64,000 nucleotides of DNA, taken from the NCBI GenBank assembly GCA_964016885.1, contig CAXHJY010000238.1:61787-125786 (forward strand), in the 5' to 3' direction. This stretch comes from Eledone cirrhosa (taxonomy: Eukaryota). Both the position numbers and the translations under genes were made by a program. A model generated the notes under the pieces. The model did no database searches. It had not been told where the DNA came from and saw only the letters and a list, made by a program, of their open reading frames with translations. The first letter of the stretch is position 1. Every line of letters starts with the position of its first letter. Shown piece by piece: positions 25,945 through 55,355 of the stretch.

Positions 25945-26480
25945 ATAATAAATGTGAAGACTAAAATCCAAAGAAGGCTCGATAAGGATAAATATATATC
26001 AAATATATAAGAACCCAAGAGCAAATATTTATTAAAATAACAGATTAAAGTTTAAGCAAAGAATCGCTGCTTTCACCCTTAACGGGATCTTCTGAAACTA
26101 AAAAAAAATCAATCTGTGAAGGCAGAAGTAAATATTTCGAAAAAAAGGAAAACCAAAGGAAAATGGGAAGCCGAGAATCATTCGGTTTCCTAAATAGAAT
26201 ATTAGTCTAATGACTCCAATTATACCATAAACGGTGGTTTTGTTTTTGCGTGTAATTGTTCTCATCGCTCCACATATTATCTTCGCCTTTTTATGTTCAT
26301 TGTCATGGAACGTCTTCACGAACCAAAGTATCGTCTTCCTCTTTTCCTTCGGTTATAACGTTTTTCTAAATATTTACTTCTGCATTCACAGATTGACTTT
26401 TTTTTTTTTGTTTCAGAAGATCCCGTCAAGGGTGAAAGCGATTCTTTGCTTAAACTTTAATGTGTTATTTCAATGAATAT
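25945..26480 (-). mobile_element. Penelope-like fold-back remnant with variant hammerhead core
   Basis: ~120-bp inverted arms (26026-26145 and 26361-26480). Each carries gttt-CAGAAGA-tccc..ggg-t-GAAA-gc..gc-tt-aaac. Confidence 0.5.
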
Positions 26481-27540
26481 ATGTATGTATGTATATGTGT
26501 ATGTATGTATGTATGTATGTATGTATATATGTATGTATGTATATATGTATGTATATGTATATATATGTATGTATGTGTGTGTGTGTGTGTGTGTATATGT
26601 GTGTGTATGTATGTATATATATGTATGTATGTATATATATGTATGTATGTATATATATGTATGTGTATATATGTATGTATGTGTATATATGTATGTATAT
26701 GTATGTATGTATGTATATGTATGTATGTATGTATATGTATGTATGTATATGTATGTATGTATATGTATGTATGTATGTATATGTATGTATGTATGTATAT
26801 GTATGTATGTATGTATATGTATGTATGTATGTATATGTATGTATGTATGTATATATATGTATGTATGTATATATATGTATGTATGTATATATATGTATGT
26901 ATGTATATATATGTATGTATGTATATATATGTATGTATGTATATATATGTATGTATGTATATATATGTATGTATGTATGTATGTATATGTATGTATGTAT
27001 GTATGTATATATATGTATGTATGTATGTATATATATGTATGTATGTATGTATATATATGTATGTATGTATGTATATATATGTATGTATGTATGTATATAT
27101 ATGTATGTATGTATGTATATATATGTATGTATGTATGTATATGTATGTATGTATGTATGTATATATATGTATGTATGTATATATATGTATGTATATATAT
27201 GTATGTATATATATGTATGTATATATATGTATGTATATATATGTATGTATGTATGTATATGTATGTATGTATGTATGTATATATATGTATGTATGTATAT
27301 ATATGTATGTATATATATGTATGTATATATATGTATGTATATATATGTATGTATATATATGTATGTATATGTATGTATATATATGTATGTATATGTATGT
27401 ATGTATATGTATGTATGTATATGTATGTATATATATGTATGTATATGTATGTATGTATATGTATGTATGTATGTATATATATGTATGTATATGTATGTAT
27501 GTATGTATGTATATATATATATATGTATGTATATGTATGT

Positions 27541-28996
27541 GTGAATTACCGTCCAATCTCACTCACCTCTCATATCATTAAGGTATTTGAGCGAGTGGTG
27601 AGATCGCGAATGACCCACTTCCTTGAGAGTAACAATATGCTGAACTCCAACCAGCATGGATTCCGTAATGGAAGGGATTGCCTGACGCAACTACTGCATC
27701 ACTTTGATGACATTTTGAGAGCCTTGGGAGAGGGTTCCAACACTGATGTTATCTACCTTGATTTCAGCAAGGCCTTTGACAGGGTTGATCATAACATTCT
27801 ACTGAGAAAGCTGTCCAATATTGGTGTCACTGGAAAGCTGCTGCAGTGGATCAAGAGCTTCCTGTCAAACAGAACCCAACATGTTGTAGTTGAGGGAGTC
27901 AAATCAAGCCCAGCCAAAGTCAGTAGTGGAGTCCCACAAGGCACTGTGTTGGGCCCACTTCTCTTCATCATCTATATTAATGACATCACTGACATCATCA
28001 AACACAGCAACATTAAAATTTTCGCTGATGATTCCAAGCTCCAAAAGGTCATCAATGGCGTGGATGACCGGATAAGCCTTCAGTCAGACCTACTGGCTGT
28101 TACCCAATGGGCAGAAAAGAACAACATGTTACTGAACGAAGACAAATTCGAACTGATCCACTTTGGAAAAGAGGATGCTCTGAAACTCCCGTACTCCCTT
28201 CCCTCCGGGGAAACTCTCGTGGCATCTAACAACATCAGAGACTTGGGAGTAACCGTGGACAGCAACATAAGCTGGACCACGCATATAAGCAGCAAAGTTG
28301 ACATGGCCCGCAGAATGTGTTCCTGGATCCTCAGAACCTTCCAGTCGAGAGATTCCCGCACCATTATCCTTCTCTTCTCTACTTTCGCCCGACCACACCT
28401 TGAATACTGTTGTCCACTGTGGTCTCCCCACACGAAACAAAGTATCATGAAACTTGAAGCTCCTCAAAGGGCAATCACGAAAAAGATAGATGGCATGTCA
28501 GACCTTGACTACTGGGGTCGATTGGAAAACCTGAAACTTTACTCACTCCAACGTCGCCGTGAGCGTTATATTATCTGCATGATGTGGAAAATGTTCCATC
28601 ATCACTGTCCAAATGATGTTGGCATCGCCTTCAAGATACACCCAAGGCTTGGGCCCCGTGCTATCCGTCCCATTCAAAAATCTAAATCGCAACTCATAAC
28701 AACAATACGGCACAATTATTTCACCTCAATCGGCCCTGCTCTCTTCAACATCACACCAGGACACGTCAAAACAGAAACTGACCACACAAGATTCAAGAAG
28801 TCTTTGGACAAATTCCTCCAAGTAATCCCGGACAAACCACCCACACCCGGATATGTCTCCGCAAACAGTAATTCTCTTCTCGAATGGGCCATGGTGCCCA
28901 AATCCTGAATTGAAAGACTTCGCCAGGTGGTGCTATTAAGTTAGACATGGCCTGGGCCAATACTGGCCAAAACATTTCAAAGTTTTCAAAGTTTTA
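27541..28996 (+). mobile_element. 5'-truncated CR1-group LINE, copy 1 (RT frame intact to stop at 28908)
   Basis: [64 protein letters not shown]. Short 3' UTR with (TTCAAAGT)2 tail. Confidence 0.93.
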
Positions 28997-31561
28997 TATA
29001 TATATGTATGTGTATGTATGTATGTATGTATATATATATGTATGTATGTATGTGTATGTATGTATGTATGTATATATGTATGTATGTGTATGTATGTATG
29101 TATGTATGTATGTATGTATGTATGTATGTATGTATGTATGTATGTATATATGTATGTATGTATGTATATATGTATGTATGTATGTATGTATATATGTATG
29201 TATGTATGTATATATGTATGTATGTATGTATATATGTATGTATGTATGTATGTATGTATATATATATGTATATATATATGTATGTATATATATATGTATG
29301 TATATATATATGTATGTATATATATATGTATGTATATATATATGTATGTATGTATATATGTATGTATGTATGTATGTATGTATGTATGTATGTATGTATG
29401 TATGTATGTATGTATGTATGTATGTATGTATGTATGTATATATGTATGTATATGTATGTATGTATATATATATGTATATATATATGTATGTATGTATATA
29501 TATATGTATATATGTATGTATGTATATATATATATGTATGTATGTATGTATATATATATATATATGTATGTATGTATATATATATGTATGTATGTATATA
29601 TATATGTATGTATGTATATATATATGTATGTATGTATATATATATGTATGTATGTATATATATATGTATGTATGTATGTATATATATATGTATGTATGTA
29701 TATATATATGTATGTATGTATATATATATGTATGTATGTATATATATATGTATGTATGTATATATATATGTATGTATGTATGTATATATATATGTATGTA
29801 TGTATATATATATGTATGTATGTATATATATATGTATGTATGTATATATATATGTATGTATGTATATATATATGTATGTATATATGTATGTATGTATATA
29901 TATATGTATATATATATGTATGTATGTATATATGTATGTATGTATATATATATGTATGTATGTATATATATATGTATATATATATGTATGTATGTATATA
30001 TATATATGTATGTATGTATATATATATGTATATATATATGTATGTATATATATATGTATATATATATGTATGCATATATATATGTATATATATATGTATG
30101 TATATATATATGTATATATATATGTATGTATATATATATGTATATATGTATGTATGTATGTATATATATATATGTATATATGTATGTATGTATGTATATA
30201 TATATATGTATGTATGTATGTATATATGTATGTATGTATGTATATATATATGTATATATATATATATGTATATATATATGTATGTATGTATGTATATATA
30301 TATATGTATGTATGTATATATGTATGTATGTATGTATGTATGTATGTATATATATATATGTATGTATGTATATATATGTATGTATGTATATATATATATG
30401 TATGTATATATATATATATATATGTATATATATATATATGTATGTATGTATATATATATATATATATATATGTATGTATGTATATATATATATATATATA
30501 TATGTATGTATGTATATATATGTATGTATGTATATATATGTATGTATGTATATATATATATATATGTATATATATGTATGTATATATATATATATATGTA
30601 TATATATGTATGTATATATGTATATATATGTATGTATATATGTATATATATGTATGTATATATGTATATATGTATGTATATATGTATGTATATATGTATG
30701 TATATATGTATGTATATATGTATTTATGTATGTATGTATGTATATATGTATGTATATATGTATGTATATATGTATTTATGTATGTATGTATGTATGTATA
30801 TATGTATGTATGTATATATATATGTATGTATATATATATATGTATGTATATATATATATGTATATATGTATGTATGTATGTATGTATATATATATGTATG
30901 TATGTATGTATATATATATGTATGTATATATATATATGTATATATATATGTATATATATATGTATATATGTATGTATATATATGTATGTATATATATGTA
31001 TGTATATATATGTATGTATATATATGTATGTATATATATGTATGTATGTATATATATGTATGTATATGTATGTATGTATATATATATGTATGTATGTATA
31101 TATGTATGTATGTATGTATATATGTATGTATGTATGTATGTATATATATATGTATGTATGTATATATATATGTATGTATGTATATATATATGTATGTATA
31201 TATATGTATGTATGTATGTATATATATATGTATGTATATATATGTATGTATGTATATATGTATGTATATGTATGTATGTATATATATATGTATGTATGTA
31301 TATATGTATGTATGTATGTATATATGTATGTATGTATGTATGTATATATATATGTATGTATGTATATATATATGTATGTATGTATATATGTATGTATGTA
31401 TATATGTATGTATGTATGTATGTATGTATGTATGTATGTATATATGTATGTATGTATATATGTATGTATGTATGTATATATATATGTATGTATGTATATA
31501 TATATGTATGTATGTATATATATATGTATGTATGTATATATGTATGTATGTATATATATAC

Positions 31562-54212: not shown

Positions 54213-54228
54213 ATGTATGTATGTATGT

Positions 54229-54639
54229 TTCCGGGAGAACTGACCCCTTCGCCTTCGTCAAGGCAGAATTCTAGGAGAAGGAAAACTCTGATATAACACC
54301 TGCAACCCTGATGGTATCCAATGATGTTGCCTTGTTCTTCTTTTTGGTAAATATCATCTTGGTTAAGAGAGTGGGACTGGCTTTGTGCAGTGCCTTTGCT
54401 CACTATAAAAGCTTCACGGCACAGGCATTGCTTTATATCTGGAGATCTCTCTGCACTTGTCATCACAGGGTACAATGGGCCCAGCACTATGTGTCAGTGA
54501 TTGTCACAAGTGTAGTGTTTGTACCAGTTTTCAAGTCGTTGGCTGGACTAAAAAGTCACACTCGTTCAGCGCATTAGTAGGGGTTCTCCTACATGGATAT
54601 AAAGTAGTGGCCGTACTCGAAAGCGAGTTGGCAGCCACC
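54229..54639 (+). mobile_element. Bipartite RTE derivative, copy 7 (5'-truncated)
   Basis: Same 3' two-thirds, separated from copy 6 by ~16 bp of ATGT. Confidence 0.88.
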
Positions 54640-55355
54640 ATATGTGTATGTATATATGTATGTATGTATATATATATATATATGTATGTATGTATGTATA
54701 TATATATATATATATGTATGTATGTATATATATATGTATATATATATGTATGTATGTATGTATATATGTATATATATATGAATGTATATAAGTATATATA
54801 TATGAATGTATATATGAATGTATATATGTATATATATATGTATATATGTATATATATATGTATATATGTATATATATATATATGTATATATATATGTATA
54901 TATGTATATATATATATATATATATGTATATATATATGTGTATATATATATGTATATATGTATATATGTATATATATGTATATATGTATATATATATATA
55001 TGTATATATGTATATATATATGTATATATATATATATGAATGTATATATATATGAATGTATATATGTATATATATATGAATGTATATATGTATATATATA
55101 TGAATGTATATATGTATATATATATGAATGTATATATGTATATATATATGAATGTATATATGTATATATATATGAATGTATATATATATGAATGTATATA
55201 TATATGAATGTATATATGTATATATATATGAATGTATATATGTATATATATATGAATGTATATATGTATATATATATGAATGTATATATTTATATATATA
55301 TGAATGTATATATGTATATATATATGAATGTATATATGTATATATATATGAATGT

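Follow-up and report, generated by a model that had tools for sequence, protein, structure and literature searches.

Introduction

Several groups of retrotransposons that lack long terminal repeats (non-LTR elements) insert into microsatellites, with examples including Togen at (TG)n, some HERO families, and families of the R1 and Tx1 clades (PMC4640811). That survey places most target-specific families in the early-branched, Tx1 and R1 groups and does not name RTE. RTE elements with microsatellite tails and a Tn-TA signature have been described separately (PMC2887409, PMC6007223, PMC13295347), and pairing between the tail and the target is a published model for their insertion (PMC6007223). 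Here we describe a stretch of 64,000 nucleotides from Eledone cirrhosa (GCA_964016885.1, contig CAXHJY010000238.1, positions 61,787 to 125,786; hereafter the window, numbered from its first base), in which an RTE with three C2H2 zinc fingers, seven copies of a short non-autonomous element, and several guest long interspersed nuclear elements (LINEs) lie in a polarized TA/TG microsatellite field. We judge it moderately probable that this locus is a nest of separate insertions in a mostly pre-existing microsatellite, in which a preference for (ATGT)n would be exerted by tail pairing and the 5′ end of the short passenger would be set by a fold resembling a flavivirus exoribonuclease-resistant RNA (xrRNA).

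The RTE of the window shares with the described tailed RTEs a single open reading frame (ORF) for an apurinic/apyrimidinic endonuclease (APE) and a reverse transcriptase (RT), a short tandem tail that has been proposed to guide nicking or priming, and T-rich upstream flanks. It is unlike them in that a single tail unit has been retained throughout a deep clade and is present at both ends, and in having three fingers where those RTEs have none or one. As in the microsatellite-targeting families, the same repeat lies on both sides, the orientation is fixed, and the pattern is conserved in the lineage, although the specificity looks leaky when set against the families of PMC4640811. The short element has its closest counterparts in Bov-A, RTESINE1/2, and WALLSI3, which likewise comprise just an RTE 5′ untranslated region (UTR) and 3′ end with no tRNA match (PMC5786205); unlike these, it starts with the xrRNA-like fold and keeps a zinc-finger coding trace.

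Subclass 1a xrRNAs are defined by a junction of helices P1 (5 base pairs, bp), P2 (1–9 bp), and P3 (4–8 bp) with a junction C and a U-A-U triple, together with pseudoknots PK1 (1–2 bp) and PK2 (2–7 bp) (PMC7527734, PMC8571300). Class 1 xrRNAs have their halt site four bases upstream of PK1 (PMC12081666). A 2021 review describes xrRNAs as characterized in viruses only and asks whether eukaryotic genomes have any (PMC8374639), and a 2025 paper states that no analogous structure is known in cellular RNA (PMC12081666). The literature searched, judged from its listings, held no report of an xrRNA in a retrotransposon or other transposable element.

A Nest of Insertions in a Polarized Microsatellite

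Between 26478 and 55350 the field holds 11 insertions: two CR1-type copies, one RTE, seven short elements, and one LINE of the restriction-like endonuclease (RLE) type. This count and layout agree with an initial annotation of the sequence, which had recognized about 11 insertions from four families, but the field extends to 56691 and takes in a twelfth insertion, of a fifth family, on the minus strand (55351–56496). The 12 tracts within 26478–55350 sum to 16,337 bases, consist almost entirely of TA and TG steps, and carry 2,380 G and 19 C on the plus strand, so that the earlier statement that G always lies on this strand holds apart from an inverted 90-base tract inside one short copy (53161–53250, minus strand). 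The RTE (31563–36166) and the short copies are all on the plus strand, as had been claimed (8/8). They stop at an identical position of a common 3′ motif, and the flank that follows begins with ATGT in six and with ATAT in two. Elsewhere in the window, no copy of either element was found.

Three of the short copies, all of them on the plus strand, retain a full-length start, namely S5 (50570–51181), S7 (53599–54212), and S6 (52950–53563), the last with an internal deletion and duplication, while S1 (37526–38114), S2 (41564–42113), S3 (44033–44480), and S8 (54231–54639) are truncated at four distinct 5′ positions. S6, S7, and S8 form a stack with spacers of 34 and 16–17 bases. Telomeric HeT-A/TART arrays have the same head-to-tail polarity, but here there are kilobase repeat spacers and mixed guests; direct joins without long spacers are confined to S6-S7-S8 (the other spacers measure 0.7–2.8 kb), and the telomeric comparison fits just this stack.

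Long microsatellites are difficult to assemble, and the two CR1-type copies are 99.2% identical with 5′ truncation points within 41 bases of each other, as would be expected if a few insertions had been multiplied in tandem, by segmental duplication, or through faulty assembly. Against this, the two CR1-type copies are set apart by a 3-base deletion, by their tails, and by four substitutions in coding sequence, of which three are synonymous; the higher-order pattern differs tract by tract; and the short copies combine one common 3′ end with varied 5′ ends and a star-like divergence. Over about 318 bases, S6 and S7 differ at 8 positions, S7 and S8 at 14, and S6 and S8 at 14, within a range of 6–18 for all pairs, so neighboring copies are not closer to each other than remote ones. 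We consider duplication or misassembly highly unlikely and regard the copies as independent insertions. The layout, the common 3′ ends, and the varied 5′ ends are direct observations and confirm that the array is real; it is mostly explained by known processes, in combination with what is probably a new repeat-preferring RTE lineage.

The Short Element as a Bipartite Non-autonomous RTE

By sequence, the short element has the make-up of a bipartite non-autonomous RTE and belongs to a sister family of the neighboring RTE. In it, an RTE-type 5′ UTR is joined to what remains of the coding sequence for the last finger, as in the three-finger clade, with a stem-loop at the 3′ end. Its 5′ part is only 68–73% identical to the 5′ UTR of the window RTE and it is thus not a direct derivative; beyond this, the two share just a diverged terminal motif. 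The short copies had initially been described as derivatives of this RTE, a line of descent that the comparison does not support. A terminal stem-loop running into ATGT or ATAT repeats had likewise been ascribed to both elements. The stem-loop is supported in the short element (51149–51181 in S5, plus strand), where 1 of 200 shuffles folds as well, but not in the RTE, where 25 of 200 do, whereas the ATGT/ATAT junctions hold in all eight copies. With regard to a head derived from a small RNA, no tRNA, 5S, or 7SL was present among the five Rfam matches of S5 at E up to 10.

The short element is very abundant in one sequencing run, X1, which is possibly the window's own source (17,053 contigs). 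Head-to-tail joints in this run (10 of 12 rows among the matches listed) were not counted as support, because the copy number is not known and tens of thousands of copies could yield them by chance. We did not read the presence of the element in runs of 16 other organisms as a sign of horizontal transfer; the study of one of these organisms supplied two raw-read runs with 0 reads, a result that tests nothing in either direction. No RNA dataset carrying the element appeared among the matches listed.

A 5′ Fold Resembling Subclass 1a Flavivirus xrRNA

The first 60 or so bases of the short element (fold at 50575–50632 in S5 and 53609–53666 in S7, plus strand) match the subclass 1a fold in helices P1–P3, the junction C, the triple bases, and both pseudoknots. 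A permissive Rfam scan of S5 gave as its top match Flavivirus SLIV (RF01415) at 50571–50642, exactly at the start of the element, with 27.2 bits and E 0.02 against a gathering score of 54.5. A homologue search returned 328 proteins, and scans of metagenomes and of GTDB gave 73 and three loci, respectively (relatives of the RTE protein were absent from viral contigs). Two of these 76 loci, L045 and L020, have related sequence in front of their RTE ORFs, on the upstream side. A model built from S5, S7, L045, and L020 and run over 77 sources found a further example upstream of the ORF in L006 (E 5e-5), which had played no part in training and whose best Rfam match is also RF01415 (22.3 bits, E 0.21).

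Across these five rows the three-way junction falls within the published ranges for P1, P2, and P3. The unpaired C between P2 and P3 and the U and A-U assigned to the base triple are invariant in all five, by sequence only; PK1 with a G-C pair is present in four, with a two-sided change in L020; and PK2 (L3-S4) has 4 bp in S5, S7, and L006 and 5 in L020. All of the subclass 1a core features are present in S5, S7, and L020. The pairing pattern is observed directly: in four rows and 28 pairs, 100% of 111 cells are standard, with three two-sided changes, and in five rows and 14 pairs, 97% of 70 cells are standard, with four two-sided changes, one of them in PK1. The two-sided changes fall in P3 and PK1, and shuffles reached the covariation score in 4 of 500 cases (four rows) and 1 of 500 (five rows), a count that is not to be read as a probability. 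The sequence of P2 is wholly different between rows, and by eye the X1 contigs add another paired P2 variant. Among eight listed X1 variants within 53626–53692, four are unpaired, two turn a wobble into a Watson-Crick pair, one makes a wobble, and one breaks a pair; the frequent variants spare the core pairs. The position of P4 is taken by a hairpin in L006 and by a small H-type pseudoknot in S5 (50633–50658, plus strand, directly behind the fold), S7, L045, and L020. In S5, L045, and L020 this pseudoknot has compensatory changes across elements, and wobble-to-Watson-Crick variants occur in X1.

In comparison with flavivirus xrRNAs (RF01415; PMC7527734, PMC8571300, PMC8374639, PMC12081666), the likeness extends to a 5-bp P1 of similar sequence, a variable P2, the unpaired junction C, a P3 of 6–7 bp, the U and A-U for the triple, a 2-bp PK1, and an L3-S4 PK2. 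The differences are that the fold lies 5′ in a retrotransposon rather than in a viral 3′ UTR, that it scores under the Rfam gathering level, and that it is a predicted fold only. Several further points weigh against the xrRNA reading. The Rfam scores of both S5 and L006 are far under 54.5, and L045 and L020, scanned whole, gave no SLIV match. L006 is without the PK1 G-C pair and L045 has only two to three pairs in PK2. The sample amounts to four independent sequences, the five rows include a pair of sister copies, and the structure was drawn from the same sequences. Moreover, a model search found no such fold in the window RTE, nor in the five loci most closely related to it (L001–L005), so the fold is not tied to the three-finger clade. 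At gathering level, Rfam gave 0 matches in the window and 0 in the 20 of 76 loci scanned. As its score lies under the RF01415 gathering level, we do not file the fold as a member of subclass 1a but only as working like one on paper, and we put the odds that it is functional at about even.

A conserved 5′ structure that does not resist Xrn1, such as a protein-binding site or an unrecognized self-cleaving motif, would also account for much of this pattern, and we regard it as a serious contender that falls somewhat short of an even chance. Several LINE families carry 5′ ribozymes, the Rfam scores stay below threshold, PK1 is absent from L006, PK2 is weak in L045, and four rows have an H-type pseudoknot at the place expected for P4. 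On the other hand, S5, S7, and L020 have every listed subclass 1a core feature, including a two-sided change in PK1, no ribozyme family appeared in the S5 Rfam scan at E up to 10, and full-length copies begin 1–5 bases upstream of PK1, near the published halt site. A reading of the motif as a ribozyme like that of hepatitis delta virus was rejected by eye, as the order of the helices is unfit.

Descriptor scans on shuffled sequence gave 0–3 and 3–9 chance matches per pass, none with the observed P1 sequence, with descriptors that were written with knowledge of the sequences. Six pattern matches in viral contigs were dismissed as chance, being without fold or RTE, and plasmid sequences gave no match.

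A Three-Finger RTE Lineage with a Preference for (ATGT)n

The RTE of the window is full length (31563–36166, plus strand), its 5′ limit at 31563 having been placed from matching flanks. The segment 31563–32015 is not TATG and is probably the element's own 5′ UTR. Its ORF (32395–35938, plus strand) encodes APE, RT, and three C2H2 fingers (35642–35935, plus strand) in two frames, with a frameshift near 34790; homologues have intact single ORFs. The 3′ UTR is short and ends in a tandem repeat, which together with the single-ORF APE and RT architecture fits the RTE clade. The labels RTE, CR1, and R4/Dong are our assumption from architecture and sequence motifs, as opposed to a tree that includes named references. 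Similar (GT)n, (TAT)n, and poly(T) blocks recur in the two UTRs of the RTE (31563–32394 and 35939–36128).

Three fingers are present in 48 of the 89 homologues of more than 1000 residues among the matches listed. In a quick maximum-likelihood tree of 74 rows, which took in 50 of the 76 loci and excluded 26 for short RT coverage, one clade of 28 rows brings together 21 proteins, the loci L001–L005, and the window RTE in its two halves, with a Shimodaira-Hasegawa-like approximate likelihood ratio test (SH-aLRT) support of 100; 20 of its 21 proteins carry three fingers, and the three loci from GTDB contigs all fall outside it. All five clade loci are observed to end in (ATGT)n, whereas none of the 42 other loci whose 3′ region was examined has at least three ATGT units there and their tails vary. 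L001 and L002 start in the repeat as well, in matching orientation and for 13.5 and 30 units, so that (ATGT)n stands at the start of two of the three clade loci with long upstream sequence; in the window, all seven short copies have the repeat at both junctions. Together, the ends of five loci and the starts of two make a lineage-wide, if leaky, (ATGT)n preference likely, at least as far as sequence comparison can indicate.

The case is not without difficulties. L004 begins in non-repeat sequence, L003 and L005 are without a 5′ end, and in L003 a 32-base tail gives way to unique DNA. The clade is represented at the DNA level by these five loci only, which are probably collapsed consensus contigs. 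Upstream of full-length copies in X1, 128 contig ends yield a T-rich consensus rather than phased TATG, with an agreement of 0.61, although this count favors unique flanks and so yields no fraction; the consensus resembles the loose RTE signature of PMC6007223. Finally, L076 harbors a decayed single-finger RTE (4692–8218) between (TG)146 and (TG)54 in the same orientation, and thus single-finger RTEs also nest in microsatellite. The L076 contig is filed in a bacterial metagenome-assembled genome and looks eukaryotic. The initial annotation had this RTE target (TATG)n. The ends and starts of its relatives speak for such a bias, but the T-rich X1 consensus makes strict targeting across the genome doubtful.

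The fingers are not the favored guide to the site. At positions -1, 2, 3, and 6 they carry S/A/G/S, S/G/G/R, and S/A/G/S, and such small residues at the base-reading positions, along with long linkers and Pfam matches that include RNA-binding finger types, argue against their reading the repeat. The choice of site would more likely be guided by pairing between tail and target.

Among described elements, the RTE named RTE-2_OV of Octopus vulgaris (PMC9115989) likewise combines a C2H2 finger with a 3′ UTR full of microsatellite; compared by description only, it has 1109 residues and one finger described, against about 1180 residues and three fingers here. Moth short interspersed elements and a LINE with ATGT tails have also been reported (PMC8010984). 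An (ATGT)n-targeting or zinc-finger RTE was not reported in the literature searched, the scope of which lay outside Repbase and most subscription journals. The three-finger, (ATGT)n-preferring lineage is probably new, and the sequence of RTE-2_OV or Repbase entries could show that it has already been named.

Origin and Growth of the Tracts

The spacing tracts, all of plus-strand polarity, lie at 26478–27543, 28995–31562, 36168–37525, 38116–39001, 40155–41563, 42114–44032 (a TG-rich variant), 44482–46289, 47778–50569, 51183–52952 (with tandemly amplified point variants), and 54641–55350, the last of which continues at 56497–56691 with the same rare 24-base variant unit. When the 100-base flanks of insertions were matched (k=18), the RTE scored 0.95 and the twelfth insertion, an RTE with a PHD finger (PHD-RTE), scored 0.92, both above all 90 mismatched pairs; an identical rare tract variant stands on both sides of the latter. 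As the two flanks of the RTE match, its tract would predate the insertion. Tempering this, the RTE result holds at one setting, with the 5′ limit at 31563, eight of the 10 junction pairs gave nothing, and without the PHD-RTE the overall test is not significant (p 0.11–0.58). Point-variant units run 5, 8, and more than 10 times in a row, and such tandem amplification indicates that tracts grow at the DNA level. The pure ATGT runs that follow 3′ ends comprise 0–13 units.

In the self-seeding array of the initial annotation, long (ATGT)n tails laid down by the RTE machinery would account for most of the field and would supply every later landing site. RTE tails have been described as a source of microsatellites (PMC2887409), all clade members examined end in ATGT, the flank starts with ATGT in six of eight copies against 38% expected from the tracts (p 0.04), and the sites occupied by S7 and S8 are tails of 34 and 16 bases. 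However, the initial pure runs are just 0–13 units long, the flanks of the RTE form one continuous pre-existing tract, point variants have been amplified as DNA, and other LINEs in the window are flanked by kilobase TA tracts with other units. We think it distinctly improbable that self-seeding built the field. The deposition of further repeat by the RTE finds little support in these data, in which the S6–S8 tails measure 16–34 bases, and "self-seeding" holds weakly and is an overstatement. The tracts likely came first for the most part and grew on their own, and the elements may add seeds.

The inverted microsatellite at 53161–53250 in S6, where a few bases have been lost, resembles a templated insertion at a repaired break. 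A further 2.6-kb tract with the polarity of the field (61391–64000) runs off the end of the window, and the field may continue beyond it.

Guest LINEs

The CR1-type copies a (27544–28994) and b (46290–47777), both on the plus strand, are 5′-truncated; copy a retains RT and the C-terminus and ends in an 8-base tandem tail. The RLE-type guest (39002–40154, minus strand) is 5′-truncated with a poly(A) end; this fragment is without RT, has a zf-RVT match, and gave no relevant match in a PDB search. From its motifs, we take it to be R4/Dong-like. A second RLE-type fragment at 1695–2100, 84% identical to 39019–39452, lies beside a CATA tract, and its polarity relative to the repeat matches that of the field copy. 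The twelfth insertion (55351–56496, minus strand) is the 3′ part of a PHD-RTE and is 99.3% identical to 16661–17783; that segment lies in an intact RTE-type ORF of 1044 residues with a PHD finger behind the RT (14376–17795), with kilobase tracts of one TA-based variant unit on both sides. That the mix of elements in the window fits cephalopod descriptions (PMC10294476, PMC13282606) is a guess.

Both the PHD-RTE family and the RLE-type element thus sit in TA-rich tracts beyond the field as well, which means that the guests need no RTE-made landing sites, contrary to what had been proposed for them. This same observation would suit a general sink, in which TA-rich tracts break often or are tolerated and RTE targeting comes down to a few bases of microhomology, as would the sharing of one field by five families, the inverted tract inside S6 with its likeness to break repair, and the T-rich X1 upstream consensus. 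A sink leaves unexplained the co-orientation of eight out of eight copies, and equally the (ATGT)n at the end of all five distant relatives and the start of two; we hold it to be unlikely.

Proposed Explanation and Significance

In the nest of separate insertions that we favor, a predicted pairing of the RNA tail with the nicked strand of the repeat would fix the orientation and let new copies land in the tails of older ones. Each insertion would add at most tens of bases of repeat, and the kilobase tracts would be built by slippage of DNA or unequal exchange. The CR1-, RLE-, and PHD-RTE-type guests would use TA-rich tracts for their own reasons. The 5′ end of the passenger is predicted to be protected by the flavivirus-type fold, down to which a 5′-3′ exoribonuclease would trim read-through RNA, so that neither a promoter nor a ribozyme would be needed. 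Since the knot's first strand itself consists of one repeat unit, the trimmed passenger RNA would both start and finish with target-like sequence, resembling R2 RNA, which keeps upstream target sequence (PMC13708176). The fuller proposal, namely that a set of RTEs and the passenger carry a working subclass 1a xrRNA and that a halted host exoribonuclease makes and protects their RNA from read-through transcripts of microsatellite nests, is evenly balanced between true and false.

The target-biased non-LTR elements would gain a clade with a repeat-preferring RTE lineage, and RTE proteins, which are in development as gene writers, are classed as random in their insertion (PMC13708176). Taken alone, the array is moderately interesting, and the surprising part is the xrRNA-like head. 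Four unrelated retrotransposon-linked candidates of 60–80 bases make the question of cellular xrRNAs testable with one standard assay. If the fold does work as proposed, it would give cellular RNA its first xrRNA of flavivirus type and would explain the defined 5′ end of a promoter-less non-autonomous LINE. It would also represent a third way to start a LINE, besides promoters and ribozymes, and a possible link between flavivirus xrRNAs and the retrotransposons of animals.

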